From: an uncultured Bacteroidales bacterium
GTDB lineage: Bacteria > Bacteroidota > Bacteroidia > Bacteroidales > UBA1402
Assembly (NCBI GenBank): GCA_964502355.1
Contig: CAZCWK010000006.1
Span: forward strand, 2,321-66,320
DNA: 64,000 nt
Direction of reading: 5' to 3'
Of this stretch, positions 6,609-32,201 are shown in pieces (position 1 is the stretch's first letter; every line of letters begins with the position of its first letter). The notes under the pieces are model-generated. The model did no database searches and had not been told where the DNA came from. It saw only the letters and a program-made list of their open reading frames with translations. Both the position numbers and the translations under genes were made by a program.

Positions 6609-6720
6609 TTTGATTATTTGCAAATAATTTAAAGTCAAAAATATAAATAAACAAAATAAAAAAAGATATTCAAACATAATGTATTTTAATCCTATTCGTT
6701 AATGTTTACTTTTTTATATT

Positions 6721-6728
6721 TATATTTG
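6721..6728 (+). promoter_or_regulatory. candidate Bacteroidota -7 promoter box (TAnnTTTG)
   Basis: TATATTTG matches the TAnnTTTG consensus, about 100 nt upstream of the CapD-like gene. No clear -33 TTTG was seen. Confidence 0.25.
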
Positions 6729-6830
6729 TAGCTCTTTACGTCCCAAATTTTTTGATCTCCATGGATAAGCAAGACAGATTATTGTTTTTTTTAATTTGGT
6801 CGGGCTGGTTTTTAATTTAAAATATTTCTT

Positions 6831-16766: not shown

Positions 16767-19250
16767 TTATTCTAAATCTACGATTGTTATACCTGCACCA
16801 CCAAACTGAACATGTTCGTCGTGATAATCTTTAACTCCATTAACTGTACCGAGGTATTGTCTGATTAGTTGCCTGAGTACTCCGGTTCCTGTGCCGTGGA
16901 GTATCCTTACACGGCTGACACCTGTCATTATAGCATCATCAATGAAATATGTAATTGTCTGCAAGGCTTCATCACCTCTCATTCCTCTTACATCTATTTC
17001 TTGTTTAAATTGTAATTTTTTTTCTCTGATTTCGTCAGATGTTCGTCTGCCAATGGTTGTATATGGGTTGAGATTTTCTTTTTTGACAGTAGCATGTTCG
17101 ATTTCGTCTATTTTGACTTTTGTTTTAATCGAACCAAAGATTACCATTGCCTTGCCTTCTTTTATTGACAAGATTGAGCCTACAGCCTGTTGCCCTTTAA
17201 TTCTTACAGTATCTTTTATTTTGAATTCCGGTTTAAGGATAGGCTTTACAGTAAGCGAAGGATTAACATCCTTTTCTTTATGTTTTGGATTGAGTTTTCT
17301 TTCGTCTTTTCTTTTGATCTTATCAATTTTTCTTTTAATAAAATCGATTTCGTCGGTATTATCTGTGGATATAGTTTCTTTAAAATCCTGGATGTTTTTT
17401 CTGAGTAATTTGGTTTTTTCCTTTTCTGCCTGAGTCTCACGGATTTCCCTGACAGTGTTTTCAATTATTGAATTGGAATTTTCCAGAATTTTTTTTGCTT
17501 CATTCTTCGCATTCAGAATTATTTCTTTTTTCTTCTGACTTACATCATTTAGTTCATTTTCAATCTTTTCATACAATTCCTCAGACTTTTTCTCCTGTAT
17601 CCTGATTTGTTGTCTTTTGTTTTCCCAATATCGTTTATCCCTTACAATGTCCTGCAAATATTTGTCTATATCAATATACTCTGAACCAACTATCTGTGAA
17701 GCCTTTTCAATCACTTCTTCAGGTAGTCCGATCTTTCTGGCAATTTCAACAGCAAAAGAACTTCCGGGTCTTCCGGTTTCTAACAAAAAAAGAGGTTTCA
17801 TCTCATTCCTGTCGTAAAGCATTGCCCCGTTAAATATGCCTTCGTGGTCATCAGCGTAATGTTTAAGATTGCTGTAATGAGTTGTAATAATGCCGAATGA
17901 TTTTTGTTTATTAAACTTTTCAAGACATGCTTCAGCTATAGCTCCTCCGATTTTTGGTTCAGTGCCACTTCCGAATTCATCAATTAATATAAGTGTTTTT
18001 CCGTTACCATTTTTCAGGAAATACTTCATGTTCAAAAGATGTGAACTATATGTACTTAAATCATTTTCAATGGATTGTTCATCGCCAATATCAACAAAAA
18101 TACTCTCAAAACATCCTGTCAATGAACTTTCATGAACAGGTATCAACAAACCGCACTGTAGCATGTATTGCAGTAAGCCGACTGTTTTCAAGCAAACCGA
18201 TTTACCACCTGCATTAGGACCTGAAATTATGAGAATTCTGTTTTTGTCATTGAGCTTTACTGATAATGGTACTATTTTTCTTTGTTGTTTTTTAAGTGAA
18301 ATGTCAAGCAGGGGATGTATGGCTTTATTATATTCAATACATGGTTCATTTATAAAATCTGGTTTAATTGCTCCTATGGTTTTCGAAAAAATCGATTTTG
18401 CTCTGAGGAAATCTATTTCAGCAAGTAACTCATATGAACTAATCATCTCAATTGCAAATGGTCTGATCTTATCTGTAATCTGTATCAAAATCTTAATAAT
18501 CTCACGTCTCTCTTCATTCTGAAGCTCTCTTATTCGGTTGTTGATTTCAACAAGTTCTTCAGGCTCAATGAAAATAGTTTTTCCTGTAGCGGATTCATCA
18601 TGTACAATACCCTTAATCTTTCTTTTATACATCGGTGAAACCGGTAAAACCAACCGGCCTTCTCTCATACCGGGAACAGTATCTTTATCCACAAATCCAT
18701 CCAATTGAGCCTTTCTCAGGATTTGACTCATCTTTCTTGAAACACTGTTGCTGGTAGATGATAATTCTTTCCTGATATTTGAAAGTTCAGGTGATGCATT
18801 ATCTTTAATTTCACCTTCAGGTGTTAAAATCGTATCAACCTTTTTAATGATTTCAGGAAATACAGGCGTTTCAGAAGCAAGCAGACTTAAACAAGGATAT
18901 TTATTTGTTTTATCTTCATTTTTAAAGAATACTACAATTTTCCTGATTGATTCCAATGATTGTCTTAATGCCAAAAGCTCTGATTCATCAAGCCAGATGC
19001 CTTCAATTCTGATTTTTTTTAGCGAAGGTTTTAAATCGTAAAAGTGACAATCCGGGAAAGTATCTTCTTCGTTTGATATATTCTGGTATTCCTGAGCTCT
19101 TCTCAGATACTCAAGTATGGTTTCATATTTGCTTGAAAATGAGATTTTATCAACTTTTTCTGAACCAAGAGTACTTAAACATTCATTTTTTAAGTACTGC
19201 CTGATCTGGTCAAATCCTATTTTTTGTTCGAAATGTATTGGATAAATCAT
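16767..19250 (-). CDS. mutS2: endonuclease MutS2 (MutS domain V ATPase + C-terminal Smr domain)
   Basis: Walker A GPNAGGKS. C-terminal Smr (VRILHGTGTGVLR). The track start 19322 adds 24 unlikely residues; the ATG at 19250 gives MIYPIHFEQKIGF. Its stop codon directly abuts the ygiQ start. Confidence 0.9.
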   Translation of the reverse strand: MIYPIHFEQKIGFDQIRQYLKNECLSTLGSEKVDKISFSSKYETILEYLRRAQEYQNISNEEDTFPDCHFYDLKPSLKKIRIEGIWLDESELLALRQSLESIRKIVVFFKNEDKTNKYPCLSLLASETPVFPEIIKKVDTILTPEGEIKDNASPELSNIRKELSSTSNSVSRKMSQILRKAQLDGFVDKDTVPGMREGRLVLPVSPMYKRKIKGIVHDESATGKTIFIEPEELVEINNRIRELQNEERREIIKILIQITDKIRPFAIEMISSYELLAEIDFLRAKSIFSKTIGAIKPDFINEPCIEYNKAIHPLLDISLKKQQRKIVPLSVKLNDKNRILIISGPNAGGKSVCLKTVGLLQYMLQCGLLIPVHESSLTGCFESIFVDIGDEQSIENDLSTYSSHLLNMKYFLKNGNGKTLILIDEFGSGTEPKIGGAIAEACLEKFNKQKSFGIITTHYSNLKHYADDHEGIFNGAMLYDRNEMKPLFLLETGRPGSSFAVEIARKIGLPEEVIEKASQIVGSEYIDIDKYLQDIVRDKRYWENKRQQIRIQEKKSEELYEKIENELNDVSQKKKEIILNAKNEAKKILENSNSIIENTVREIRETQAEKEKTKLLRKNIQDFKETISTDNTDEIDFIKRKIDKIKRKDERKLNPKHKEKDVNPSLTVKPILKPEFKIKDTVRIKGQQAVGSILSIKEGKAMVIFGSIKTKVKIDEIEHATVKKENLNPYTTIGRRTSDEIREKKLQFKQEIDVRGMRGDEALQTITYFIDDAIMTGVSRVRILHGTGTGVLRQLIRQYLGTVNGVKDYHDEHVQFGGAGITIVDLE

Positions 19251-19450
19251 AAAGCCCCGACCGAAATTTATATTTACAAATATAATACTAATAACTGAGC
19301 TGTATTGTTCTGAAAAAAACAATTAAATCTTATATATGTACTTAGTATTCACGTTCTAATCGGCATAGCAATAATGATATTTAATTGCTTTTAATCAATT
19401 AATGTTTATTTTTGTTATACCATAAACACACAAACATCATTGTTTTTATC

Positions 19451-22249
19451 ATGAAGAACTTTAAATCTGCAGTAGTTTTAATAAATATATTGTTTTTAAC
19501 TTTCTTATTTTCCTGTAATAAGCAAAGTGATCAGACCAGATCAAGGATTGATTTATCAGGGGATTGGTCGGTTTCATTGATAAGTGATTCGACATCTTCT
19601 AAAACATCCTCAATATATTTGCCCGGCACAACAGACATTGCAAAAATTGGGCACCTCAATAAAGATACTTCTTTAAGCCATTTGAACAGAGAGTATTATT
19701 ACAATGACAAGGCGTTTTACAAAAAAGAAGTGGATATACCTCAGGAATGGGATGGCAAACATATTGTTTTGTACATGGAAAGAACCAAATCATCAGGTTT
19801 ATGGATTGATGATAAACTGGTCGGTAAATCTGATATACTTGAATCCCCGCAAATCTACGATATTACATCTTTTGTGAAACCGGGAAAACATCTGTTGACT
19901 ATAATGGTGGACAATAATTTGAAAAATACTCCTTATGGGAATGTCCACATTTATTCAGATGATACTCAGACAAACTGGAATGGAATACTGGGAGATTTTT
20001 ATCTTGAAGCTTCAAGTATGACTTATATTAAGGATTTACAGGTGTTTCCTGATATCAACGATAAAAAAATTAAAGTTAAAATGACTGTAGGCAATTCCAT
20101 AAATAAAAAGATAAAGACCGAGCTTACAGTGACTAAAAGGAGAGGGGATGTAAAAGTAAAATTAGCACCTGAAAGTTTTGTTATAGATTGCGATTCCGTC
20201 ATTGAGCTTTCTTATAATTTAAAAGGAAACACCCATTACTGGGATGAATATCATCAAAGTTTCTATGATATAAATATTAAGATCGGATCTACAGATGAAT
20301 CCTGGTCTGATAGTAAAAGTGTAACTTTTGGTATGCGTAAATTTTCTACCAAAGACAATCATTTTACTATCAATGACAGAATTACATTCTTAAGAGGTAA
20401 GAATGATGCATGCATTTTTCCAAATACGGGCCATACCCCAATGGATGAAGAAACCTGGATGAAGGTGATGAGTGTAGCAAAAGAGTATGGTATCAATCAT
20501 TATCGTTTTCATTCATGGTGTCCTCCCGATGCTGCATTCAGAGCCGCTGACAAACTGGGTATCTATATGCAGGTTGAATTACCTTATTGGGGCAATATTG
20601 ATTCTTTGTATTCTAAAATGTATGATGAGGGTATTCATTTATTGGAGAATTATGCTAATCATCCTTCGTTTGTAATGTTTTCAATGGGTAATGAGTTATG
20701 GGGAGATTTTCAAAAAGCCGGTCAATTAATGACTAATCTTAAAAAAGCTGACGGCAGACCATTATATGCGATTGGTTCGAATATAAATATCGGCTATACC
20801 TGGCCTTTTGAAGGTGCGGACTTTTATGTTGGAGCAAGAACACCTTCAGATGGTGATAACCATTTAACACACTTAAGATTAACTCATGCTTTTGCTGATT
20901 CATATCAGGCGGGATTACTTAACTCTAATGTGCCATCAACAAGAATTAATTTCGATAATGCTGTTTCGCAGATAAAAATACCTGTAGTAAGTCACGAAGT
21001 TGGTCAATACCAAATATATCCTGATTTCAAAGAAATAAAAAAATACAAAGGTGTTTTGAAACCATGGAACCTTGAAAAATTCAGCAACAGATTAAAAAAA
21101 TCAGGAATGTTTGACCAAAATACTGATTTTCAAAAAGCTTCAGGTGCGTTATCCGCAATTTGTTATCGGGCAGAAATAGAAGCTGCATTAAAGACAGATA
21201 AGCTTGCTGGTTATCAATTACTTGATCTTCAAGACTATTCTGGCCAGGGAACAGCATTAGTTGGCATTTTGGATGCATTTATGGAGAGTAAAGGAGTAAT
21301 TGATGTTGAAGATTGGAAAAGTTTTTCAAATGATGTTGTGCCTCTTTTAGGTTTTGATAAATATTGCTGGACAAATAAAGAAAGATTTTCAGCTGATATA
21401 CAAATTGCAAATTTCTCAGATAAGAAATTTGATAATAAGATTGTTTATAAAATAACTGACGAGAGTGGTAAAAAAATAAAGGACGGTTTCATTAAAAACA
21501 AGATTATCGATAACCAGGGTGTAAATCATTATGGTAAAATCATGTGTGATTTGTCAACAGTAAAAAAAGCTTCTAAGCTTACAATATCCATCAGCATAGA
21601 TAGCACAAATTATAAAAATGATTATTCTGTTTGGGTATATCCTGTCAACCAGCAAATCGAAACCCCTAAAGATCTGATTGTAAGTAATAAGCTTAATAAG
21701 GCCTTACTTATTCATCTAGCTAAAGGTGGCAAAGCTTTATTGTTGCCTGAAACTTATACTGTTTCTCATAATAGTCTGCCGGGGATGTTTATCCCGGATT
21801 TCTGGAATTACGGCATGTTTAAACAAATAAGTATATCCAATGGGAAACCGGTTTCTCCCGGCACTTTAGGATTACTTATGGATCCTGAACATCCGATATT
21901 CAATGATTTCCCGACAGAATTTCACACTAACTGGCAATGGTGGAATATTATAAAAAACAGCAATTCAATGATACTGAATAATTTGAAGAGCGATTACAAA
22001 CCTATCGTTCAGGTGATTGACAATATGGAAAGAGATTATAAACTCGGTCTAATTTTTGAGTTTAAAGTAAACAAAGGCAAATTATTGATTTGTATGTCAC
22101 AATTACATAGAAACCTTGAAAAACCTGAAGTTTATCAACTTTATAAAAGCATTATTAATTATATGTCTTCCGAAAAATTTAATCCTGCTTACAGAATTAC
22201 TCCGGAAGAATTGACGCAAATGGTAAAATATACAGTTACCAAGTTTTGA
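19451..22249 (+). CDS. glycoside hydrolase family 2-like lipoprotein (sugar-binding jelly-roll + TIM barrel)
   Basis: Signal peptide with lipobox (LTFLFSC) after ATG 19451. The GH2-like N-terminal region ends NWNGILGDFYLEA; the TIM-barrel-like region contains HYRFHSWCPP and MGNELWG. The family assignment is tentative. Confidence 0.5.
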   Translation: MKNFKSAVVLINILFLTFLFSCNKQSDQTRSRIDLSGDWSVSLISDSTSSKTSSIYLPGTTDIAKIGHLNKDTSLSHLNREYYYNDKAFYKKEVDIPQEWDGKHIVLYMERTKSSGLWIDDKLVGKSDILESPQIYDITSFVKPGKHLLTIMVDNNLKNTPYGNVHIYSDDTQTNWNGILGDFYLEASSMTYIKDLQVFPDINDKKIKVKMTVGNSINKKIKTELTVTKRRGDVKVKLAPESFVIDCDSVIELSYNLKGNTHYWDEYHQSFYDINIKIGSTDESWSDSKSVTFGMRKFSTKDNHFTINDRITFLRGKNDACIFPNTGHTPMDEETWMKVMSVAKEYGINHYRFHSWCPPDAAFRAADKLGIYMQVELPYWGNIDSLYSKMYDEGIHLLENYANHPSFVMFSMGNELWGDFQKAGQLMTNLKKADGRPLYAIGSNINIGYTWPFEGADFYVGARTPSDGDNHLTHLRLTHAFADSYQAGLLNSNVPSTRINFDNAVSQIKIPVVSHEVGQYQIYPDFKEIKKYKGVLKPWNLEKFSNRLKKSGMFDQNTDFQKASGALSAICYRAEIEAALKTDKLAGYQLLDLQDYSGQGTALVGILDAFMESKGVIDVEDWKSFSNDVVPLLGFDKYCWTNKERFSADIQIANFSDKKFDNKIVYKITDESGKKIKDGFIKNKIIDNQGVNHYGKIMCDLSTVKKASKLTISISIDSTNYKNDYSVWVYPVNQQIETPKDLIVSNKLNKALLIHLAKGGKALLLPETYTVSHNSLPGMFIPDFWNYGMFKQISISNGKPVSPGTLGLLMDPEHPIFNDFPTEFHTNWQWWNIIKNSNSMILNNLKSDYKPIVQVIDNMERDYKLGLIFEFKVNKGKLLICMSQLHRNLEKPEVYQLYKSIINYMSSEKFNPAYRITPEELTQMVKYTVTKF

Positions 22250-22252
22250 TAT

Positions 22253-22939
22253 TTATTCAACAGTCATCATATAACCCGTTCCACGCATAGTCTTAATTTG
22301 AACCCGTGGATCGGGAGCAAGATATTTTCTTAACGTATAAATAAATGCATCAAGCCTTTGTTGTGTGTAAAACTTAATGCCTCCCCAGATAAGTTCGGCT
22401 ATTTCTTCTTTAGAAACCAGCTGGTTCATTTTTTTACACAAAAGTTCTAATAAATATGCTTCACGCATAGATAAATGAACATCACCATTAGATGAATGAA
22501 GTACCTGTAATTTAGCATCAAAGCCCATATTTCCCAAATGATATATGTTTTCTGATTTATCCTCAGATTTTATACCTGTCCTTTTTATAAGTCCCTGTAG
22601 ATAAGCATGAAGCTCATCAGGTAAAAAAGGTTTTTTAATATAATTATCAATGCCGATTTTATATGCTTCCAGTATTATTTTACTGGAAGTTACGCATGTT
22701 TCAAGTATGATTGGAATATCGGCATCCTTTTCTCTGATCTTTCTTGCAAAATCAAGACCACTCATTATAGGCATTTCAACATCAGATACAATTACGTCGG
22801 GTTGGAACTCTTCATACGCTCTCAATCCTTCAACAGGATTAACAGACCACTGAACATCATATTCGCCTATAAGTTCCATTCCTTCTTTTATAATGAAGCC
22901 CAAAACTTCATCATCTTCAACCAACAATAACTTGATCAT
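22253..22939 (-). CDS. OmpR/PhoB-family response regulator
   Basis: 228 aa. Receiver domain (DVIVSDVEMPIMSG, KKPF) plus a winged-helix C-terminus (MRGTGYMM). Lies 4 nt downstream of the kinase gene. Confidence 0.85.
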   Translation of the reverse strand: MIKLLLVEDDEVLGFIIKEGMELIGEYDVQWSVNPVEGLRAYEEFQPDVIVSDVEMPIMSGLDFARKIREKDADIPIILETCVTSSKIILEAYKIGIDNYIKKPFLPDELHAYLQGLIKRTGIKSEDKSENIYHLGNMGFDAKLQVLHSSNGDVHLSMREAYLLELLCKKMNQLVSKEEIAELIWGGIKFYTQQRLDAFIYTLRKYLAPDPRVQIKTMRGTGYMMTVE

Positions 22940-22943
22940 ATAA

Positions 22944-24245
22944 TCAATTTTTATATAAATCTATTATAAATTCACTGCCAACGCCTTCTGTACTATCTAC
23001 CATAATAGAGCCCTTATGGGCTTTAATAACTTTCTGGACGTAATTTAATCCTATACCAAAACCATCAATACCTTTTATATCTACTTTATTACCTCTTTCA
23101 AAATTGTCAAATATGTGTTTGATTTCTTTTTCTGAAATTCCAAACCCATTATCCTTGATATGAATCTTGAGTTTATCTGATTGACATTCACATATAATCT
23201 GAATTTTTATAGTTGATTCTGAGTATTTTATCGCATTATCTATGAGATTACTCAAAACATTTTCCATTAATGTCGGATCAAAATTCCAGACTATATTTTC
23301 CTGATTGTAACTGGTAGTAATTTCAAGATTTTTTTGTCTGTAATTATTCAATCTATAACTCTCTGCAATTTTCTCAATATATGGTTGTAATGTTACTACT
23401 TCATAGTCCGGAATAATTGCTGAATGTTCTGCTTTTGCAACCAATAGTATCCTTTCAACAGTTTTCAATAATTTTGAACTTTGATCTTTACATATTTGAT
23501 AATGTTTTTGTCTTGACTCCAGGTTACCTTCAAGCTTTCCGGAAGTCAGCATGGATGAAGACATGTATATACCACTTATAGGAGTTTTTAATTCATGAGT
23601 AAGAGCATGTGTGTATTCTTTAAGAAATGTTACAAACTTACTTTCTCTAAGCATTCCCTGTAACTGAATGATTAAAATTACACCAATCAATACAGCCAGA
23701 AACAAAGATATTATCAATATTAACTGTGCTTCCCGCAATACTGAACGAATAGGTGAAATGAGAGTTACTTTTAAATATTGATCTTCTGTAATCTTATTAT
23801 ATAAGGTGTATTTAGAATAAGTGCTTTTAATTCTGGTAGAATCATCAACCATCTTTACTGTATAATTCAACTTTTCATTCAAACTATTATCAAGGTTCTG
23901 GCTAATTAATGTATCCAGGCGTGAAACTGAACAGGGGAGACCCAGCATTTTTGATAGTTCTTGCAGGCTAGTGTTTATGTCGATTGATTTACTGACTTGA
24001 TTATCTGTAAGAACCACGTCATCATTATCTAAAATATTTTTTTCTTGAACATTTAAATTAATAGATTTTTTTTCAAGTCTTTCATATAACTCAGATTCAA
24101 CAGCTTTATCAATGCTTTCTTTGCATTTTACCAAAAGATTATGCTCCATAAGGTCAAAAGAATTTTTAAACCAGATATATTGCAGTACCAGTAACAGCAG
24201 TATGCCAACGATTGATACGATTCTGATAGATTTAGTCTTGAACAT
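22944..24245 (-). CDS. sensor histidine kinase (two TM helices flanking a periplasmic domain, HisKA + HATPase_c)
   Basis: H-box THELKTPISG, N-box LIDNAIKYS, G-boxes DNGFGIS and GFGIGLNYV. The track start 24272 is TTG; the first ATG is at 24245. Confidence 0.85.
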   Translation of the reverse strand: MFKTKSIRIVSIVGILLLLVLQYIWFKNSFDLMEHNLLVKCKESIDKAVESELYERLEKKSINLNVQEKNILDNDDVVLTDNQVSKSIDINTSLQELSKMLGLPCSVSRLDTLISQNLDNSLNEKLNYTVKMVDDSTRIKSTYSKYTLYNKITEDQYLKVTLISPIRSVLREAQLILIISLFLAVLIGVILIIQLQGMLRESKFVTFLKEYTHALTHELKTPISGIYMSSSMLTSGKLEGNLESRQKHYQICKDQSSKLLKTVERILLVAKAEHSAIIPDYEVVTLQPYIEKIAESYRLNNYRQKNLEITTSYNQENIVWNFDPTLMENVLSNLIDNAIKYSESTIKIQIICECQSDKLKIHIKDNGFGISEKEIKHIFDNFERGNKVDIKGIDGFGIGLNYVQKVIKAHKGSIMVDSTEGVGSEFIIDLYKN

Positions 24246-24297
24246 TATAATTTCATATTGAGGTGTATGCAAATATAAATGATTATTTAAAAACTTG

Positions 24298-24328
24298 CTC
24301 AGGTTAAATAAGGTTTTACTCAGATTAA
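24298..24328. promoter_or_regulatory. direct repeats CTCAGGTTAA / CTCAGATTAA (21-bp register) and AGGTT/AGGTT (10-bp register)
   Basis: CTCAGGTTAA at 24298-24307 and CTCAGATTAA at 24319-24328. AGGTT at 24301 and 24311. They sit in the divergent region between the kinase operon and the peptide gene. Confidence 0.4.
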
Positions 24329-24355
24329 CTAAGATTTCTTTTTAGGATAGACGCA

Positions 24356-24388
24356 ATCTTATATCTTATTTTTGTAAAAAATAAGATA
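24356..24388. promoter_or_regulatory. heptamer repeats (ATCTTAT x2 direct, x1 inverted) forming a perfect 12-bp inverted repeat that embeds a -7 box
   Basis: ATCTTAT at 24356-24362 and 24363-24369; its complement ATAAGAT at 24381-24387. Inverted repeat TATCTTATTTTT (24362-24373) / AAAAATAAGATA (24377-24388). TATTTTTG (24367-24374) matches TAnnTTTG, 44 nt upstream of ATG 24418. Confidence 0.5.
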
Positions 24389-24417: not shown

Positions 24418-24564
24418 ATGAAAACAATTTTTAATTCAACCAAAAGCAACAAGAAAAATTTTGAAGTTATCTCAAGTGAAGAAATGAAACAGGTTCAAGG
24501 TGGTGTTCGCGTGATTGCTATCAGAGATGGTGAAGGAAATATAAGAGTAGTTATCATACCTTAA
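24418..24564 (+). CDS. double-glycine-leader precursor peptide (48 aa), bacteriocin/RiPP/peptide-signal candidate
   Basis: Below the ORF-track cutoff. My translation: MKTIFNSTKSNKKNFEVISSEEMKQVQGG|VRVIAIRDGEGNIRVVIIP. The leader fits the GG-leader consensus (hydrophobic at -4, -7, -12, -15; E at -8; S at -11). A C39-peptidase ABC exporter lies downstream. Confidence 0.8.
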   Translation: MKTIFNSTKSNKKNFEVISSEEMKQVQGGVRVIAIRDGEGNIRVVIIP

Positions 24565-24584: not shown

Positions 24585-24761
24585 ATGGGAACAATAAATT
24601 TCCACGCAGAACGCCTGTTCTTTAATCCAATTTTAGATCCTATTTCTAATTTCAGGTCTCTCTACGGCATTGAAATTGAAGAAAATAGTCAGAATCTGTT
24701 AAACAGGTATATTTCACGTTCTGTAAATGATGCAAAGACTTACAAAGTAGTCATATTGTGA
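24585..24761 (+). CDS. hypothetical 58-aa protein (unannotated small ORF)
   Basis: ATG 24585 to TGA 24759-24761. Translation: MGTINFHAERLFFNPILDPISNFRSLYGIEIEENSQNLLNRYISRSVNDAKTYKVVIL. It starts 20 nt after the peptide gene and ends 5 nt before the SPASM gene. No recognisable motif. Confidence 0.45.
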   Translation: MGTINFHAERLFFNPILDPISNFRSLYGIEIEENSQNLLNRYISRSVNDAKTYKVVIL

Positions 24762-24766
24762 TTTAG

Positions 24767-25762
24767 ATGTATCGGTATTTTAACCTTTATTCGTTTTGTA
24801 TTCCTGTTAAGGGGATAAAAAGGGCGGTCGTCTGCGATTTGCAGCGTAATATTATTCAACCTATACCTCTGTTGCTCTTTGAATATCTCGAGAAACTTAA
24901 AACAGTTGATGAACCTTTGGAAATGTTAGATACTTATACTAACATTGAGAGGAATACAATCAATGAGTATATCAACTTCTTATATTATAATCAGTTCGGT
25001 TTTTTTACAACAAATAAGCCGATTGCTCCTGACATCCCGACAATTGAATATTCTGATGATAGTCAAATTACAAATGCAATTGTGGACTTTAACAGAAATT
25101 CGGAACATTCTTTAGAAAATATTCTTGGTCAGTTATCTGAATTGGGATGTAAGGCTATTGAAATAAGATATTTTTATCCAATACCTTTTACTCATTTTTT
25201 AGATTCATTAATCGTTGCAAATAATTGCCAGGTTGAAAAAATCGAATTTTTACTCCAGAAAAATGAGGAAATTAACTGGAACAAAATTCTTCAGTTAAAT
25301 ATTCAATTTCCAAAACTAAAAAAAGTTACTATAAGTAATTCTGCAGACAATATTATCTACAAACATGAGGACCTTGTAGTAATATATACTACTGAGATAA
25401 TCAGGAATGAGACAAAATGCGGTGTTACAGGTGAGCTTTATTGTATAGCTGATAACAGATTATTCTGGGAATCTCAGAATTTTAATAATTGTCTTTACAA
25501 AAAAATATCAATTGACAAATCCGGATTAATAAAGAATTGTCCTTCCATGCAGGAAAGCTTCGGAAATATACAATTCACTAAGCTATCTGATGTAATTTCA
25601 GATGAATCTTTTAAAAAATTCTGGACCATAACTAAGGATTCGATTGAGATTTGCTCAGAATGCGAACTAAGATATGTTTGTCAGGATTGCAGAGCTTATA
25701 CAATAAATATGAACAATCCTTTTTCCAAACCTCTGAAATGCAGATATAATCCTAAAGAATAG
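24767..25762 (+). CDS. SPASM-domain protein lacking the radical-SAM Cys triad (pseudo-radical-SAM / SPASM-only peptide-maturase-like)
   Basis: 331 aa. The C-terminus has a full 7-Cys SPASM pattern: CLYKKISIDKSGLIKNC (C-x10-G-x4-C), CSECELRYVCQDC (C-x2-C-x5-C-x2-C), and a final C in KCRYN. No CxxxCxxC occurs anywhere in the protein. Confidence 0.75.
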   Translation: MYRYFNLYSFCIPVKGIKRAVVCDLQRNIIQPIPLLLFEYLEKLKTVDEPLEMLDTYTNIERNTINEYINFLYYNQFGFFTTNKPIAPDIPTIEYSDDSQITNAIVDFNRNSEHSLENILGQLSELGCKAIEIRYFYPIPFTHFLDSLIVANNCQVEKIEFLLQKNEEINWNKILQLNIQFPKLKKVTISNSADNIIYKHEDLVVIYTTEIIRNETKCGVTGELYCIADNRLFWESQNFNNCLYKKISIDKSGLIKNCPSMQESFGNIQFTKLSDVISDESFKKFWTITKDSIEICSECELRYVCQDCRAYTINMNNPFSKPLKCRYNPKE

Positions 25763-25841: not shown

Positions 25842-28055
25842 ATGAAAAGCTTTCATTTTATTTCACAGTTGGATGCCATGGATTGCGGACCAACCTGCCT
25901 ATTGATGATATCAAAATTTTATGGGAAATCTTTTGATTTACAGGATTTAAGACAAAGAGCATCAATAAATAAACTTGGAACTAATCTGCTTGGCCTCAGT
26001 GAAGCTGCTGATTCATTAGGTTTTGAAGCAACCGGAGTTAAAGTTTCAGAAGATCAATTGATTGAGGATGTCCCACTGCCATGTATTCTTCACTGGAAAC
26101 AAAATCATTTTGTTGTATGTTACGACATTAAAAGGAAAAGGAATGGATCAGTGATTTTTTTAATTGCTGATCCTGCTACCGGATTAGTAAAGTATGATAA
26201 AAATGAAATCAGAAATAACTGGATAAGTTCCGGAAATTCAAATGAAAATGGAAATAAGGGAGTTGCATTGATTCTTCAACCTACAAATGTCTTTTTTGAT
26301 ATTGCAGAAGAAAAACCAAATGGAAAAAACAAGATAATCCCTTTTATTAATTATTTAAAACCGTATAAGAAGCATATTTTACAGATCATTGTAGGTATGG
26401 TAGCTATCAGCATTTTACAGTTGATTTTACCGTTTCTTACTCAGGTTTTGGTCGATATTGGTATAAAAGATGGCAATTTAAATTTCATAAAAATCATCCT
26501 CATTACCCAGCTTTTAATTTTTATTGCGAGATTATCTGTGGAATTTATCAGAGGATGGTTATTGTTACATATTAATACAAGGATAAGCATATCTCTTATT
26601 TCAGATTTTCTGATTAAAATCATGAAAATGCCTCTGAAATTTTTTGATACTAAAACAATAGGGGATATATTACAAAGGATAAGCGATCACAAAAGGATAG
26701 AATCTTTTTTAACAGGCAATTCGGTTACCTTACTATTTTCACTCATTAATTTTTTTGTATTTTCCTTAGTGCTTGGTTATTATAAATTTAGCCTGCTGGC
26801 TTTATTTTTATTAGGAAATACAATTTACGTTGTGTATGTTCTGTTTTTTATGAAATACCGCAAAAACCTCGACAATAAAAAATTTGAACTTTCTGCTGAA
26901 GAACAAGGTAATTTGATACAGATGGTTTCCGGTATGCAGGATATAAAACTAGGTAACTGTGAAAATCAAAAAAGATGGAAGTGGGAGCAAATTCAGGTAA
27001 GATTATTTAATATTAATGTCAAAAATCTTGCATTAGGACAAATTCAACAAATCGGTTCAGTCTTTTTTAGTCAGCTTACCAACATTCTGATTACGTTTAT
27101 TGCTGCTAAATCTGTGGTAGATGGCGAAATAACTTTGGGTATGTTGATGTCAGTAAGTTTTATACTGGGTCAGTTAAGTGCTCCTATTGATCAGTTTCTT
27201 GGATTTTTTCAGACATTCCAGGATGCAAAACTTAGTCTGGAACGGTTGAATGAGATTCACGGCAAAAATGATGAGGAACAGGATTCTATGAAAAAGCTTG
27301 AAGAGATATCCGGTAAAAGGAACATTATAATTTCGAATCTTAGTTTTGGATATGAACATGCTGAAAGAGATTTTATTTTAAGGGATCTGAATCTTGTGAT
27401 TGAAGAAAATAAAGTTACTGCGATCGTTGGTTCCAGCGGAAGTGGTAAAACTACATTGATAAAATTATTACTCGGTTTTTACGAACCTCAAAAAGGTAGT
27501 ATATGTATTGGTGATACTAATCTGAATAATATTAATCCTCACTACTGGAGGAATTGTACAGGCTCGGTATTGCAGGATGGTTATATTTTTTCTGAAACAA
27601 TAGCCGAAAATATTGCATTAGGTGATACTGAGATTAATAACGAAAAACTGAATAAAGCTGTAAATATTTCAAATATTAAAGATTTTATTTACTCTTTACC
27701 TCTAAAGTTCAATACAAAAATCGGTACTGATGGGCATGGTTTAAGTCAGGGACAGAAGCAAAGAATTTTAATAGCCAGGTCTGTTTACAAAAATCCGGAT
27801 TTTTTGTTTTTTGATGAAGCAACAAATGCACTTGATGCTTCAAATGAAAAGGAAATAATGGAAAATCTTGATTCTTTCTACAATGGAAAAACTGTAATCA
27901 TTGTAGCACACAGGCTAAGTACAGTCAGAAATGCAGATAAAATTGTTTTTATTGAAAATGGTCAGATTATTGAAGAGGGTAATCATGAGGAACTGACTTC
28001 GCTTCGGGGAAAATATTACAATCTTGTAAAGAATCAGTTGGAGCTTGGTAATTAA
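25842..28055 (+). CDS. peptidase-containing ABC transporter (PCAT; C39 peptidase + ABC TMD + NBD), bacteriocin/peptide exporter
   Basis: 737 aa. C39 catalytic Cys in QLDAMDCGPTC and His in HWKQNHFVV. Six-TM region. Walker A GSSGSGKTT, signature LSQGQKQR, Walker B FLFFDEATNALD, H-loop VAHRLS. Confidence 0.9.
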   Translation: MKSFHFISQLDAMDCGPTCLLMISKFYGKSFDLQDLRQRASINKLGTNLLGLSEAADSLGFEATGVKVSEDQLIEDVPLPCILHWKQNHFVVCYDIKRKRNGSVIFLIADPATGLVKYDKNEIRNNWISSGNSNENGNKGVALILQPTNVFFDIAEEKPNGKNKIIPFINYLKPYKKHILQIIVGMVAISILQLILPFLTQVLVDIGIKDGNLNFIKIILITQLLIFIARLSVEFIRGWLLLHINTRISISLISDFLIKIMKMPLKFFDTKTIGDILQRISDHKRIESFLTGNSVTLLFSLINFFVFSLVLGYYKFSLLALFLLGNTIYVVYVLFFMKYRKNLDNKKFELSAEEQGNLIQMVSGMQDIKLGNCENQKRWKWEQIQVRLFNINVKNLALGQIQQIGSVFFSQLTNILITFIAAKSVVDGEITLGMLMSVSFILGQLSAPIDQFLGFFQTFQDAKLSLERLNEIHGKNDEEQDSMKKLEEISGKRNIIISNLSFGYEHAERDFILRDLNLVIEENKVTAIVGSSGSGKTTLIKLLLGFYEPQKGSICIGDTNLNNINPHYWRNCTGSVLQDGYIFSETIAENIALGDTEINNEKLNKAVNISNIKDFIYSLPLKFNTKIGTDGHGLSQGQKQRILIARSVYKNPDFLFFDEATNALDASNEKEIMENLDSFYNGKTVIIVAHRLSTVRNADKIVFIENGQIIEEGNHEELTSLRGKYYNLVKNQLELGN

Positions 28056-28069
28056 TAAAAAATGTTCGA

Positions 28070-28585
28070 ATGAATCAAAATGATATAGAAAAAAGGTCAG
28101 GGGAAGTACAAAAACTGATGAATCAAATACCCGGTAAAATACTCATATGGGGAAATACGATAATTCTTTTTATAGTAATTAGTTTAATAATAATTGCCTG
28201 TTTTTTTAATTATTCAGAAGTAGTAAAATCTGATATCATAATTAATACTACCAGAACCGGTCATAATACATATGTGAATAAAGGGTTATTATTATTGAAT
28301 TTTGAAGGATCAGATAAAATCAGAAAAGGTTATCCTGTAGAAGTCCGTATTGATAACTATCTTGGACATAAACAAGGTCATATTAAAGGTGTTATAACAG
28401 CAATATGTACTAATAATTTAAATAGTGAGTTTGGAGAAGCTCATATAAATTTCTCCCGGACTGTGGTAGCTGATAACCATAAATATTTACCGGACTCTAT
28501 TGTGTTTCGTGGCAATGCGAAAATAATAGTTGGAAAAACCAGGTTTTTAACAAAAATAAAGCTGGCTTTGAAAAAGAAATCATAA
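28070..28585 (+). CDS. HlyD-family adaptor-like protein, unusually short (171 aa; no coiled-coil hairpin)
   Basis: The N-terminus (RSGEVQKLMNQIPGKILIWGNTIILFIVISLIIIACFF) and C-terminus (GNAKIIVGKTRFLTKIKLALKK) resemble the ends of about 400-aa Bacteroidota bacteriocin HlyD proteins (from memory). The central helical region is absent. Confidence 0.55.
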   Translation: MNQNDIEKRSGEVQKLMNQIPGKILIWGNTIILFIVISLIIIACFFNYSEVVKSDIIINTTRTGHNTYVNKGLLLLNFEGSDKIRKGYPVEVRIDNYLGHKQGHIKGVITAICTNNLNSEFGEAHINFSRTVVADNHKYLPDSIVFRGNAKIIVGKTRFLTKIKLALKKKS

Positions 28586-28593
28586 TAAAGGTA

Positions 28594-30012
28594 TTAAGCT
28601 ATAGGTATCTTAATAAGAAATTCAGTTCCAACATGTTCTTTGCTTGTAACCAGAATATCGCCTTTATGAGCCTTCACAACTTTTTTTACAAAACTTAAAC
28701 CAATACCGTATCCCATAATACTGCTTCTTTCAACTTTGCTACCCCGGTTGAAATTTTTAAAAATTTCATCCAAATCCTGAGCTGAAATTCCCATACCATT
28801 ATCGGATATTTTAATATTGAGGTTATTATTATCCTGCCGGCATTCAATATCAATATTTAGTGATTCATATGAATATTTGATAGAATTATCTATCATGTTG
28901 TAAAAAACTATCTCAAATTTGTCTTTGTCTATACAGGCTTGCAGATTTTCCGGATTACATATAAAACTAAACTTCACTTCTTTGTTTTGCACTGAGACAG
29001 ACTCTTTGTAATAACAGATTATTTCATTAACAAATTCGTTAATTTTTACAAATTTCTTTGTTAAAACAAGTTCACCTCGTTCTTCTTTTGCCAAAAGAAG
29101 TAGTCTGTGAATACTCCGGATTTGTTTTTCGCATTGTTCTTTGAATAGTTTATAATACTTGCTGCGTAACTCTTCGCTTTTATCAAAATTACCCATTTTC
29201 AACATATCAGAAACGTACATTATATTGTTTAACGGAGTCTGCATATCGTGAGTTACTGCGCTGGTATATTCCTTTAAAAATTGAATTTTAAGATGCTCTT
29301 TATTTAATGATCTTATTTGAAGAATGATAATCAGTATAACAAACATTACAATAAAAAGAGAAGTAAAGAATAAGCGTCGTATTTCTTTGTAGTGTATTAC
29401 AGATTTAAGATCAAGATTCATTTCAATTACCTGTACACTGTTTAACCTGATAAGAATATGGTTACCTTGTATGCTATCATATACCAGATTTGTATTAGAG
29501 CTAACTTCAGAAGTTGTTTTTTTGGTATTTCTACCCTTAGTAGAATCACTGATTAAACCTGAAATCTGAAAGTTTTTTAATTGAACAGAATCATTTTTGA
29601 TTGAAATATTATATTCCGGTAAAAAGCCAATTTTATTTGTAATAATACTTTTATATATAGAATCAATTTTAGATATATCAGGTTTAATACCCATAAGATA
29701 TGATGATTCATATAAAAATATTATCATATCTCCGGTTTTAGACGCCATACCACTAGCAATAACTTCTCCGTCAGTAACAAATGTATCTTTGACTAAACTT
29801 ATTTTACTGTCAGCTAAAACATCTGTTCTTTCAATCAATTCAATATCTGCCGCTTCCCTAAGGCTCGTTTTGCATTTCTCCATCATATCTTTTGATGTGG
29901 ATTCAAATGCTTGTAAAAACCAGTTATACTGCAGTATTAATAGTAATAAAACGCACAATATGGGTAATACATGCATTGATATGTAAACCAGTTTGTTCTT
30001 ATTTATTTTCAT
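28594..30012 (-). CDS. orphan sensor histidine kinase, paralog of 22944-24245
   Basis: 472 aa with the same architecture as the other kinase. TM1 LLLLILQYNWF compares with LLLLVLQYIWF. H-box VTHDMQTPLNN; NMIDNSIKYS; SDNGMGIS; GYGIGLSF. No adjacent response regulator. Confidence 0.85.
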   Translation of the reverse strand: MKINKNKLVYISMHVLPILCVLLLLILQYNWFLQAFESTSKDMMEKCKTSLREAADIELIERTDVLADSKISLVKDTFVTDGEVIASGMASKTGDMIIFLYESSYLMGIKPDISKIDSIYKSIITNKIGFLPEYNISIKNDSVQLKNFQISGLISDSTKGRNTKKTTSEVSSNTNLVYDSIQGNHILIRLNSVQVIEMNLDLKSVIHYKEIRRLFFTSLFIVMFVILIIILQIRSLNKEHLKIQFLKEYTSAVTHDMQTPLNNIMYVSDMLKMGNFDKSEELRSKYYKLFKEQCEKQIRSIHRLLLLAKEERGELVLTKKFVKINEFVNEIICYYKESVSVQNKEVKFSFICNPENLQACIDKDKFEIVFYNMIDNSIKYSYESLNIDIECRQDNNNLNIKISDNGMGISAQDLDEIFKNFNRGSKVERSSIMGYGIGLSFVKKVVKAHKGDILVTSKEHVGTEFLIKIPIA

Positions 30013-30111: not shown

Positions 30112-30582
30112 TTATTTCATCTTTTTTGTAAGTTTCTGAATATCTTCCATAGTCATGTTTCCATTCATTTGTATGATGACAAATTCGTCAGGTTCATCAA
30201 CCAACATTACAAGTTCAGAAATCAGAGTTTCAGATTTTTTCTTGACATAAAAATTTACATTGGATCCATCATCTTTGATTTTCATAAGTATTTCATATGC
30301 CGGATTGTTATGAAAGTGGGAAGTTTCCGTACGCATCATTTTTGCTATTCCGGGATTTTCAGAAGTCAGTATTAAAATACCTGATAGTTTTCCTGCAAAA
30401 TCTCCTATGTCCATTCCATTTTGGATTTTCATACCAGGCATCATTTGAAGCATTGATTTTGAAATAAATACAGAAGTAACTCCTTCCATCTCAGAAAACT
30501 TATCAAACAATTTATTTTGGGCAAAGCAATTGCCTGTAATCAGAACCATCAGTAAAGCAATTATTATATTCTTTGTTTTCAT
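30112..30582 (-). CDS. DUF4252 domain-containing secreted protein
   Basis: 156 aa with a signal peptide. The pattern LFDKFSEMEGVTSVFISKSML...ILILTSE...FVIIQMNGNMTMEDIQKL is typical of DUF4252, as I recall that family. Confidence 0.7.
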   Translation of the reverse strand: MKTKNIIIALLMVLITGNCFAQNKLFDKFSEMEGVTSVFISKSMLQMMPGMKIQNGMDIGDFAGKLSGILILTSENPGIAKMMRTETSHFHNNPAYEILMKIKDDGSNVNFYVKKKSETLISELVMLVDEPDEFVIIQMNGNMTMEDIQKLTKKMK

Positions 30583-30592
30583 ATAGTTATTA

Positions 30593-31183
30593 TTATTTGT
30601 TATTAGTAATCTTTTTAATTTGTTTGTCTAATATCTTATTGGATTTTTCAATTTTATTTGTTGCATTCTCCATTTGTTCAAATCCTGTATTTAAGTTCTC
30701 AGCGACCAAAGCAAGAGCTTTTTGAGTTTCAACGTAAGCTTTAGCCGGATCATTAAAAGTATCAGCATAGTTTTGAGTATCATTTTTCTTAACTACGGCA
30801 AATGTTATTGCAAATATTATTAGGGCACATGCTGCGATTGTTGACATAATTGTCCATGGCGAATACAGAAATACATTTTTTCTTTTTGGAGGCTTTATAT
30901 CAGGATTTATTCTTTCTGATATTGCTTTTTCACTATAGCTGGAATTGTTATTTTCGGAATTTTCAGAAAGTTTATCAATCATAGAGTTTAAATCAAACTC
31001 CAGGGATTCAGGTACGTTTATCACTTCGTTTTCATAACAAGCTAAAAATATTTTCTTGTCATCCATCAGTTCATCTGGTACATTATCCTTACTGAAGAAT
31101 TCATACAATTCTTTTTCTTGTTCGTTTGTGGTATTCCCATCATAAAACTCTGAAATTAGCTTTTTTATATGTTGAGTTCTCAT
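30593..31183 (-). CDS. putative anti-sigma factor (single-pass membrane protein)
   Basis: 196 aa. Cytoplasmic N-terminus, one TM (WTIMSTIAACALIIFAITFAVV), immediately downstream of the ECF sigma gene. Assignment is by context only. Confidence 0.4.
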   Translation of the reverse strand: MRTQHIKKLISEFYDGNTTNEQEKELYEFFSKDNVPDELMDDKKIFLACYENEVINVPESLEFDLNSMIDKLSENSENNNSSYSEKAISERINPDIKPPKRKNVFLYSPWTIMSTIAACALIIFAITFAVVKKNDTQNYADTFNDPAKAYVETQKALALVAENLNTGFEQMENATNKIEKSNKILDKQIKKITNNK

Positions 31184-31187
31184 TGTT

Positions 31188-31745
31188 TTATAGTGTAATG
31201 TTTAGACAATATTCATTATTATTTTCTACTTTATAATTCAATTCTCTGTTATAGAATGAATTATAATTTTCTTTAATAAACTTTCTACTTCTTGACAGAA
31301 TAACTCTGATATTGACAGCGCTTAATCCTGTAATCGCTTCAATTTCTTCAAAACTGTAATCATCATAGTGTCTTAATTTAAATACAAGCTTACTTTGCTC
31401 AGGCATTTTTTCGACAATCTTGTTAATAATACTTAGTGACTCATTGGTTTCAAAATCAGTAATTATTGACGAACTGTCAGACTTTTCCACATTTTGCAAA
31501 TCAAGCGAGTTCATTTTGTTTCTTGATGATCTCAAAATATCCATGCAGAGATTTCTAACCATTACTATGCAAAAGGATTCAGGATTTCTGAGTAATTCAA
31601 GCTCATCTCTTTTTTCCCACAACTTAACGTAAGTTTCCTGAACTACATCCTCTGCATCTGATGAATCTTCAAGAAGGCGATAGGCCATTCTGTAAAGTTT
31701 CTTATGTAAAGGAATAAATACTCCTTTGAAAGTAGTTGCATCCAT
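31188..31745 (-). CDS. ECF-type RNA polymerase sigma-70 factor
   Basis: 185 aa. Region 2 (DAEDVVQETYVKLW) and region 4 HTH (SFEEIEAITGLSAVNIRVILSRSRKFIK). Confidence 0.85.
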   Translation of the reverse strand: MDATTFKGVFIPLHKKLYRMAYRLLEDSSDAEDVVQETYVKLWEKRDELELLRNPESFCIVMVRNLCMDILRSSRNKMNSLDLQNVEKSDSSSIITDFETNESLSIINKIVEKMPEQSKLVFKLRHYDDYSFEEIEAITGLSAVNIRVILSRSRKFIKENYNSFYNRELNYKVENNNEYCLNITL

Positions 31746-31748
31746 TTA

Positions 31749-32201
31749 TCAATTGTTACATGCAAATTTTTGAACATCAGTTAAAGAAAAGCTGCCTTTA
31801 ATTCTGATATAAGCTGAATCATCACCGGTTACTAAAATGACGATTTCGTTAAAATGATCATTATAGTTTTTGGCCATAATCTTTACAAACTCGTCATCTT
31901 CTTTCACCTGAATAAGAGTTTCGTACAATTCATCATCAACATATCTGACTCTGTCACCATATTCTTCTTTTACATGCCTGTCACATTCACTCAAATCCAG
32001 AACCTGTAATGATTTTATTTTCAGGCCACTAAATTCTTTTTGTGATATGAATGGTCTTATCACTGACATGACAAAACGATTAAGATTTACTTTTTCAACA
32101 TTCCGGGCATATGAAAAATCCTTAAAAATATCACTCACAGATTCTGCCTGAATATTGAGGACGCTGATAAAAATTGTTGCTATAAATAAAATACGTTTCA
32201 T
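31749..32201 (-). CDS. DUF4252 domain-containing secreted protein
   Basis: 150 aa with a signal peptide. C-terminal VILVTGDDSAYIRIKGSFSLTDVQKF fits the DUF4252 pattern. First gene of the ECF operon. Confidence 0.65.
   Translation of the reverse strand: MKRILFIATIFISVLNIQAESVSDIFKDFSYARNVEKVNLNRFVMSVIRPFISQKEFSGLKIKSLQVLDLSECDRHVKEEYGDRVRYVDDELYETLIQVKEDDEFVKIMAKNYNDHFNEIVILVTGDDSAYIRIKGSFSLTDVQKFACNN

Follow-up and report, generated by a model that had tools for sequence, protein, structure and literature searches.

The window analysed here, a stretch of 64,000 nucleotides (33.7% G+C) from an uncultured Bacteroidales bacterium, carries at positions 24418-24564 a short open reading frame (ORF) for a peptide with a double-glycine (GG) leader. 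This ORF is a genuine gene, conserved and under coding constraint. It heads an operon-like row of five same-strand genes, and the eight-gene cassette around it has the appearance of a peptide signal or bacteriocin system that induces itself, undescribed so far for Bacteroidales. The ancestry of the cassette lies in grasp-with-SPASM graspetide clusters; no member of its clade (hereafter termed graspless) has the ATP-grasp gene, and a two-component system is present in that clade alone. Comparisons among homologous loci incline us, if only slightly, towards an exported and autoinducing peptide, in which the precursor would be cleaved at its GG site and the product sensed by a sensor kinase that acts through the response regulator, so that the peptide would induce its own production. 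The features of the cassette are as follows.

22253..22939, reverse strand: response regulator of the OmpR/PhoB type, with a receiver domain and a winged-helix Trans_reg_C domain (PF00072, PF00486)
22944..24272, reverse strand: sensor kinase HK1, with transmembrane segments at residues 15-33 and 184-202 and an extracytoplasmic loop of about 150 residues (HisKA, HATPase_c, hydropathy)
24298..24338, no strand assigned: four tandem 10/11-bp repeats, CTCAGGTTAA / ATAAGGTTTTA / CTCAGATTAA / CTAAGATTTC, a putative regulator-binding array read from the sequence
24363..24387, no strand assigned: palindrome ATCTTATTTTTGTAAAAAATAAGAT with a -7 box, TAnnTTTG, at 24367-24374; occurs once in the window, where chance predicts 0 matches
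24418..24504, forward strand: leader peptide, residues 1-29, ending in the predicted G28-G29 cleavage site (translation, TIGR01847, invariant GG)
24505..24564, forward strand: core VRVIAIRDGEGNIRVVIIP, residues 30-48, plus stop codon (translation, family pattern, AlphaFold2)
24585..24761, forward strand: 58-residue partner protein, separated from the SPASM gene by 5 nt and conserved at all graspless loci
24767..25762, forward strand: SPASM-domain 'peptide maturase' of TIGR04193, 331 residues (258.7 bits, cutoff 175)
25842..28055, forward strand: C39-peptidase ATP-binding cassette (ABC) exporter, i.e. a peptidase-containing ABC transporter (PCAT) (PF03412, E = 1e-29; ABC_membrane, ABC_tran)
28070..28585, forward strand: HlyD-type adaptor, shortened, 171 residues, with one transmembrane segment at 24-42 (BLASTP, hydropathy)
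28594..30012, reverse strand: sensor kinase HK2, with no adjacent regulator, two transmembrane segments and a loop of about 185 residues (HisKA, HATPase_c, hydropathy)

The peptide gene and its family

Positions 24418-24564 of the forward strand translate to MKTIFNSTKSNKKNFEVISSEEMKQVQGGVRVIAIRDGEGNIRVVIIP, a peptide of 48 residues followed by a stop codon at 24562-24564. The ORF is also present in the program-made ORF list of the window, it is the only one in the 64 kb with a GG-leader pattern that adjoins an exporter, and the exact 48-residue protein has already been gene-called, without a name, in NCBI and Logan assemblies. The initial annotation had recognised a double-glycine leader from the residues G-1, G-2, V-4, M-7, E-8, S-11, I-12 and F-15, and all of these positions are correct on the translation. 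Its assignment is borne out by the TIGR01847 bacteriocin_sig model, whose curated cutoff is just reached (16.1 bits against 15.7), and by the C39-peptidase ABC exporter encoded downstream, the N-terminus of which reads QLDAMDCGPTC ... NHFVV and thus has the expected C39 Cys and His motifs. Pfam Bacteriocin_IIc scores 20.8, under its cutoff of 27.1. Matches to TIGR04149, BriC, ComC, Lactococcin and Mersacidin leaders were considered and rejected as family assignments; all are sub-cutoff and reflect only the common GG leader. For TIGR04149, the scores are 12.4 bits for the window peptide and 14.8 bits for its relative at locus L013, against a cutoff of 25. The 19-residue core is composed of I5 V4 R3 G2 and single A, D, E, N and P residues, and a count agrees with the earlier description of it as free of Cys, Ser, Thr, Lys and aromatic residues. 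The computed monoisotopic mass of the unmodified core is 2088.2531 Da.

About 70 distinct relatives of the peptide are available, and all have in common an MK start, the GG site and one turn Gly. In an alignment of 35 sequences, the invariant residues are M1, K2, E22, G28, G29 and G40. A search of homologous loci for GG ORFs, combined with an alignment of their cores, had been put forward at the outset as a check on the gene; both the ORF and its GG motif are kept at all testable syntenic loci, and the GG peptide is in the same position at every graspless locus with enough upstream sequence. At L006, the stretch in which the GG peptide would be expected (~6680-6790) is masked by a run of N in the genome record. 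The closest relative of the window cassette is that of locus L003, whose peptide is VEVIAVRDSDGHVRVIIVP. Between these two, the peptide gene has a ratio of nonsynonymous to synonymous divergence (dN/dS) of 0.30 and a dS of 0.96. A burst of positive selection in the peptide was considered and rejected, since dN/dS is 0.30 and dS is also raised; these values therefore point to coding constraint and to an older allele. A frame of only 48 codons in a genome of 34% G+C, with no strong family match, could also be suspected of being open by chance in an AT-rich intergenic region. This explanation has a negligible probability, as it is refuted by the conservation of M1, K2, G28, G29 and G40 in about 70 relatives, and the syntenic position, the dN/dS of 0.30 and the gene calls by independent pipelines likewise speak against it.

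Searches with a profile of the peptide returned 63 proteins among 5.8 billion, a few of which their sources name 'bacteriocin' or 'bacteriocin-like protein'. The cluster representatives, 1.84 billion in number, gave 58 matches, mostly peptides of 47-73 residues, and the rest were large repeat proteins. The repeat proteins (1634-5400 residues, with 5-17 matching stretches each) were rejected as homologues because their Pfam domains are unrelated (LapA, SdrD-B, FG-GAP and MBG), and they are read as instances of a generic strand-DxDG-strand likeness, not of homology. In these matches (P0191, P0192, P0204, P0206, P0208 and P0238) there are many short strand-DxDG-strand stretches, and the motif resembles Ca-binding hairpin turns.

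The typical leader of the family reads MKTNLVKKGSEKNIEMFKMSNEELxxINGG, and its N-terminal half is conserved beyond the needs of the C39 domain. The family cores follow a pattern of a strand, a [D/E/N]-x-[D/E/N]-G turn and a second strand, with alternating aliphatic residues on both sides of the invariant Gly. They often continue with RPG or NR and then with a tail rich in Ser, Phe and Arg; core length across the family is 19-38 residues, and the window core, at 19, is the shortest. When AlphaFold2 was run with the family alignment, it placed a leader helix at residues 20-28 and strands at 31-36 and 42-47, with a predicted local distance difference test (pLDDT) score of 75-78 in the core. The score for the whole peptide is 59.7, owing to the disordered N-terminal part of the leader. 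The earlier suggestion of a beta-hairpin core is thus in agreement with the strand-turn-strand pattern of the family, with its invariant Gly, and with the two modelled strands. According to the model, the core probably folds as a beta-hairpin with its turn at D37-G38-E39-G40-N41.

It had also been argued that the composition of the core excludes the usual peptide-modifying chemistries, and the family data bear this out. Cys is present in none of the 70 distinct family cores, an ATP-grasp gene is found at no locus of the clade, and the CxxxCxxC motif of radical S-adenosylmethionine (SAM) enzymes is absent from all 148 proteins of the SPASM family (see below). The absence of Ser, Thr and Lys, however, is not family-wide, as only two of the 70 cores, including that of the window, are without all three. 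No conserved Ser/Thr/Lys donor position and no conserved Asp/Glu acceptor position was found in the family alignment.

The graspless clade and its SPASM protein

The 331-residue protein encoded at 24767..25762 is a member of TIGR04193, the 'grasp-with-spasm system SPASM domain peptide maturase' family. In total, 160 loci with TIGR04193 relatives were gathered from species-representative genomes and metagenomes, and ATP-grasp genes were sought by tblastn, with the L012 protein, verified as TIGR04192 (280.7 bits), as the query. An ATP-grasp gene lies directly upstream at every locus that has enough upstream sequence and a SPASM protein no more than 44% identical to that of the window. By tblastn, such a gene is absent from the window locus and from 33/33 loci in which the SPASM protein shares 46% identity or more with that of the window. 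The graspless SPASM proteins are monophyletic in 100/100 neighbour-joining bootstraps, with no ATP-grasp locus inside the group, and they diverge down to 42% identity with the architecture intact. This architecture is fixed in the clade: a regulator and HK1 (divergent), the peptide, the small ORF, the SPASM protein, the exporter, the adaptor and HK2 (convergent). The kinase-regulator pair and HK2 are present at essentially every graspless locus with enough flank (the exception is L099, at which HK2 was not detected), and the C39-ABC exporter gene is conserved across cassette loci. All named members of the clade are uncultured Bacteroidales or Bacteroidota metagenome-assembled genomes.

Grasp-with-SPASM graspetide clusters of Bacteroidota, which combine a TIGR04192 ATP-grasp protein with a TIGR04193 SPASM protein, have been described as 'branch 5' (Makarova et al. 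2022, PMC8939145), and the grasp-with-SPASM genes gwsG/gwsS have been reported from an integrative and conjugative element of P. gingivalis (preprint 10.64898/2026.08.04.741601). The window cassette shares with these clusters the SPASM family, a small partner ORF that directly precedes the SPASM gene, a GG precursor, a C39-ABC exporter and an HlyD adaptor. In contrast to them, the window clade has no ATP-grasp ligase, which is their defining test. Its cores are of the strand-turn-strand type, whereas the nearest canonical cores are Thr-rich/Asp-rich (YTxNTxT...DG...DGVxND), and it has a regulator and two kinases, whereas of 121 canonical loci just one gave a kinase or regulator match. Among canonical precursors, those closest to the graspless clade (L102, L103, L105, L107, L108, L012 and L016) are encoded upstream of the ATP-grasp gene and read MKK..F..L...EKMKRVKGG followed by YTxNTxT...DG....DGVxND; their cores are unrelated to the hairpin family.

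Since the ATP-grasp gene is absent, and since several lineages have an HlyD adaptor with an internal deletion, the locus might be regarded as the decaying remnant of a graspetide cluster, left with a functionless peptide after the loss of ATP-grasp. We consider this highly improbable, and it is already contradicted by the state of the genes, all of which are intact and under purifying selection. Additionally, the graspless architecture is intact across a clade that diverges to 42% SPASM identity, and the promoter elements are kept almost base for base.

One correction to the initial reading is that the SPASM protein is not a radical SAM enzyme. CxxxCxxC is found within the first 230 residues of none of the 148 SPASM-family proteins (0/148) and is also missing from the invariant columns, whereas all 148 have the CX2CX5CX2-3C SPASM motif; the TIGR04193 protein is therefore a pseudo-radical-SAM protein. 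Eleven Cys residues are conserved in it; the seven of the SPASM domain and further ones are kept in both clades. The protein probably carries two auxiliary Fe-S clusters. Three of the conserved Cys residues, C11, C23 and C128, lie outside the SPASM domain and are invariant or nearly so across the family. In the AlphaFold2 model (pLDDT 86.6), an N-terminal region of four strands and three helices that is similar to a RiPP recognition element (RRE; RiPP, ribosomally made peptide with post-translational modifications) spans residues 4-81 and is followed by a reduced beta/alpha barrel and a C-terminal SPASM domain. The only significant fold matches in the PDB are the two CteB entries 5why and 5wgg (E = 5e-6, TM 0.41-0.45). 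A comparison of the SPASM-family profile with PDB sequences gave chance-level matches only (YmcA/RicA, E ~0.1), which were discarded. The SPASM protein is descended from a CteB-like RRE-radical SAM-SPASM enzyme. It has the same domain order as CteB, which represents the sactipeptide/ranthipeptide synthases (RRE-like N-terminus, beta/alpha barrel, SPASM), and CteB is its best fold match; unlike CteB, the window family has no CxxxCxxC (0/148), a reduced barrel, no sequence match in the PDB and a substrate family that is free of Cys. No functional study of TIGR04193 proteins was found in a literature search.

Across loci L011-L162, every TIGR04193 gene, with or without ATP-grasp, is directly preceded by a small ORF with the C-terminal motif [FY]-x-[KR]-x-I-S-[KR]. 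At graspless loci, the motif of this partner is ...F-N-[KR]-x-I-S-R-L...Y-[KR]-V-V-x-L, which aligns with the canonical ...F-Y-K-P-I-S-K... (hhalign P = 7.6e-4). Relatives of the partner were drawn from syntenic loci, and a word-indexed search returned only a 95%-identical copy. On the evidence of position and motif, the 58-residue partner is a positional and probably a true homologue of the 'LPL-family' proteins of grasp-with-SPASM clusters. The LPL family has been described, and proposed as a PqqD-like auxiliary component, by Makarova et al. (2022, PMC8939145). The partner proteins of graspless loci have AERLF...PIS in place of the N-terminal 'LPL'-type motif. The 58-residue partner has no GG site and no obvious division into leader and core.

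Most likely, the SPASM protein binds the leader by means of its RRE-like N-terminus, together with the 58-residue partner. A contact between the SPASM protein and the leader is suggested by this N-terminus, by the fold match to CteB, by the conservation of the N-terminal half of the leader, and by a correlation of leader distance with SPASM distance (partial Mantel test given the kinase domain, r = 0.46-0.73, p <= 0.0007). The SPASM protein would then either alter the peptide via its two auxiliary Fe-S clusters or merely escort it. Alternatively, the GG peptide could be an independent, unmodified cargo of the exporter, and the SPASM protein could have the 58-residue protein as its real ligand or substrate. 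This is an improbable arrangement, although each TIGR04193 gene, whether or not ATP-grasp is present, is immediately preceded by a small ORF with the motif, and the partner is 100% identical to that of L003 while the GG peptide is only 62% identical. The lack of a GG site or an obvious leader/core split in the small protein argues against it, as does the fact that leader distance tracks SPASM distance, and Makarova et al. (2022, PMC8939145) interpret the LPL protein as PqqD-like and auxiliary.

Proposed regulation, and divergence of peptide and kinases

The intergenic region between HK1 and the peptide gene is 145 bp long and has two conserved features, namely the tandem repeats and the palindrome. 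In most of 21 loci, a relaxed repeat motif, nnAGrwT, occurs at least three times in a row with an OmpR/PhoB-like spacing of 10-11 bp and at the same distance from the -7 box. The palindrome contains TATTTTTG, which fits TAnnTTTG, the -7 consensus of Bacteroides sigma-ABfr promoters. Its core is present in 18 of the 21 loci, and the DNA is nearly invariant even where the proteins are only ~50% identical; in 20 of the 21, a TAnnTTTG box is located 36-65 nt ahead of the ATG. No TTTG was seen at the expected position of the -33 element of the peptide promoter. Because the -7 box is not accompanied by TTTG at -33, we infer an activator-dependent promoter, presumably driven by the adjacent OmpR-type regulator. 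The best NCBIfam match of this regulator is RprY, under the cutoff. The conservation of the palindrome exceeds the need of a -7 box alone, and a second, dimeric regulator may bind at 24363-24387.

Comparison of the window with L003 shows that divergence is unevenly distributed over the cassette. Amino acid identity is 100% for the 58-residue partner, 96.5% for the response regulator, 95% for the SPASM protein and 94% for the ABC exporter, against 91% for HK1, 85% for HK2, 77% for the adaptor and 62% for the GG peptide. The SPASM and ABC genes have a dN/dS of 0.08-0.09. In HK1, 27 of the 40 differences fall within the first 120 residues, and those in HK2 are concentrated in the extracytoplasmic loop. 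At the nucleotide level, identity is ~92% in the background but 66-72% in the peptide gene, 70% at 24001-24100 (HK1 loop, residues ~57-90) and 66-78% at 29501-29700 (HK2 loop, residues ~104-170). The peptide and the extracytoplasmic loops of the kinases are local divergence hotspots between these close relatives. Across 18 cassettes, core distance is correlated with HK1 sensor distance given the kinase domain (partial Mantel, r = 0.24, p = 0.008), and the control, core distance against kinase-domain distance given the SPASM protein, is null (r = 0.05, p = 0.32). An exported peptide of this size had been likened to the peptide pheromones of Gram-positive bacteria; the clade-specific two-component system, the promoter repeats, and the co-location of divergence in the peptide and the sensor loops all support this idea.

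Judging by how C39 exporters are known to act, the leader would be cut after G28-G29 and the 19-residue core VRVIAIRDGEGNIRVVIIP exported. Comparative evidence suggests that the exported peptide would then be sensed by the extracytoplasmic loop of HK1, possibly also by that of HK2, and that the phosphorylated OmpR-type regulator would bind the tandem repeats at 24298-24338. The bound regulator would activate the promoter that has a -7 box only (24367-24374), so that the cassette would induce itself. The peptide may be a signal alone or also an antimicrobial.

Several observations weigh against the autoinduction scheme. The link between peptide and kinases rests on synteny and divergence patterns, the regulator boxes and transcription start are placed from consensus alone, and the confidence of AlphaFold2 for the peptide is moderate. 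The partial correlation between HK2 sensor and core is not significant (13 loci), and the claim of sensing therefore relies mainly on HK1 and on the pairwise hotspot. Partial Mantel tests are anticonservative on phylogenetically structured data, so the tests of co-evolution are suggestive only. In general, sensor loops evolve faster than kinase cores. Additionally, dS is 0.96 in the peptide and 0.3-0.4 in its flanks, and replacement of the allele fits as well as co-evolution does. Finally, the cassette has no outer-membrane channel gene and its adaptor is without the middle part, and extracellular release is therefore not assured.

The divergence of the peptide also bears on a second explanation, in which the peptide is primarily an antimicrobial RiPP. 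In that case the SPASM protein and the 58-residue partner would install a modification, and the two-component system would tune production or tolerance while sensing something else. We regard this as possible but somewhat doubtful, and the same holds for the example of a mode of action that we considered, beta-strand augmentation on an outer-membrane target of competitors. The locus is derived from RiPP (graspetide) clusters, seven SPASM Cys and further Cys residues are conserved in both clades, strong purifying selection acts on the SPASM and ABC genes (dN/dS 0.08-0.09), and some sources call relatives of the peptide 'bacteriocin' or 'bacteriocin-like protein'. Fast diversification of the peptide (62% identity, against 94-100% in neighbouring operon genes) is also typical of bacteriocins. 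However, no immunity-like gene was found in the cassette, the family has no conserved residue besides the turn Gly to act as a shared site for modification, the radical-SAM cluster motif is missing from the maturase, and the divergence hotspots coincide with the sensor loops of the kinases, all of which count against an antimicrobial as the primary function.

Peptide pheromone circuits are textbook knowledge for Gram-positive bacteria, and autoinduced peptide systems include the lantibiotics nisin (NisRK) and subtilin (SpaRK) as well as ComC/ComDE, BlpC/BlpHR and PlnA, which are three-component systems of class II bacteriocins or competence pheromones. To our knowledge, no peptide pheromone circuit is known for Bacteroidota. 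By analogy, the window cassette would work most like autoinduced RiPP/bacteriocin systems such as nisin/NisRK and ComC/ComDE. Based on general knowledge, its GG-leader peptide and C39-ABC exporter are comparable to ComC/ComAB, and its two-transmembrane sensor kinase with an OmpR-family regulator is comparable to NisK/NisR. Similarly, as in autoinduced lantibiotic and pheromone systems, the peptide gene lies beside sensor genes, and the peptide diverges faster than its neighbours. In contrast to the Gram-positive systems, the cassette belongs to a diderm Bacteroidales host and has two kinases per regulator, and an Fe-S pseudo-radical-SAM protein and its partner are part of the operon; autoinduction is, for this cassette, an inferred property.

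Within Bacteroidales, GG-leader systems with radical SAM or pseudo-radical-SAM proteins have been described, in which the precursor belongs to TIGR04149 and the pseudo-radical-SAM protein to TIGR04150 (PMC10352776). These also have a Bacteroidota GG-leader peptide beside a radical-SAM-like protein without the cluster motif. They differ from the window cassette in that its peptide reaches only 12.4 bits against the TIGR04149 cutoff of 25, TIGR04150 is not among the matches of the 331-residue protein, and no true radical SAM gene is present in the cassette. A literature search that included a dedicated survey of Bacteroidales RiPP clusters (PMC10352776) did not find this combination, in which a Bacteroidales host has a Cys-free hairpin, two kinases and a SPASM protein devoid of the radical-SAM cluster. 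More tentatively, and with less confidence than we attach to autoinduction as such, the cassette could constitute a quorum-sensing-like circuit of a diderm. In this circuit a Cys-free hairpin would be escorted or modified by an Fe-S SPASM protein, released by the C39 exporter and sensed by two dedicated kinases through their periplasmic loops, and peptide and sensors would co-diversify in the manner of pherotypes.

If true, the linkage of a GG-leader peptide to two periplasm-sensing kinases would provide a directly testable signalling candidate for Bacteroidota. The Bacteroidota RiPP clusters that have a TIGR04193 protein number in the hundreds. The graspless clade has retained the SPASM protein and its partner without ATP-grasp and with a Cys-free substrate, which isolates the function of the SPASM protein from graspetide chemistry. 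This clade is thus the simplest system for learning the role of a SPASM protein that has no radical-SAM cluster. The peptide family, which is hypervariable in sequence around a fixed turn, is a natural set of variants for tests of specificity.

Adaptor truncation and flanking genes

When the 171-residue adaptor was compared by BLASTP with its 437-residue homologue from L008, residues 2-60 aligned with 7-65 and residues 74-169 with 336-435. What is kept is thus the transmembrane part at the N-terminus and ~100 residues at the C-terminus, and the protein is therefore an adaptor with an internal deletion, in which ~270 middle residues are gone. The middle part has been lost independently elsewhere (L009, 10298-10834; L095, 8292-8822; L096, 8293-8823; and L104, 8289-9293). 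The deletion boundaries of the short adaptors differ by lineage, and their lengths are 171-185 residues, against ~437 residues. These cases suggest recurrent loss of the periplasm-spanning region of the adaptor, which raises the question of whether the peptide leaves the periplasm. Given the truncated adaptor in several lineages, release may perhaps be into the periplasm only.

The genes on either side of the cassette are as follows.

14886-16766, reverse strand: Radical_SAM_N/DUF3362 protein
16767-19322, reverse strand: MutS2-Smr
19412-22249, forward strand: GH2 glycosidase
30112-32201, reverse strand: extracytoplasmic function (ECF) sigma factor and two DUF4252 proteins

These genes are of ordinary types and have no relation to the cassette, the boundaries of which are therefore placed at ~22253 and ~30012.

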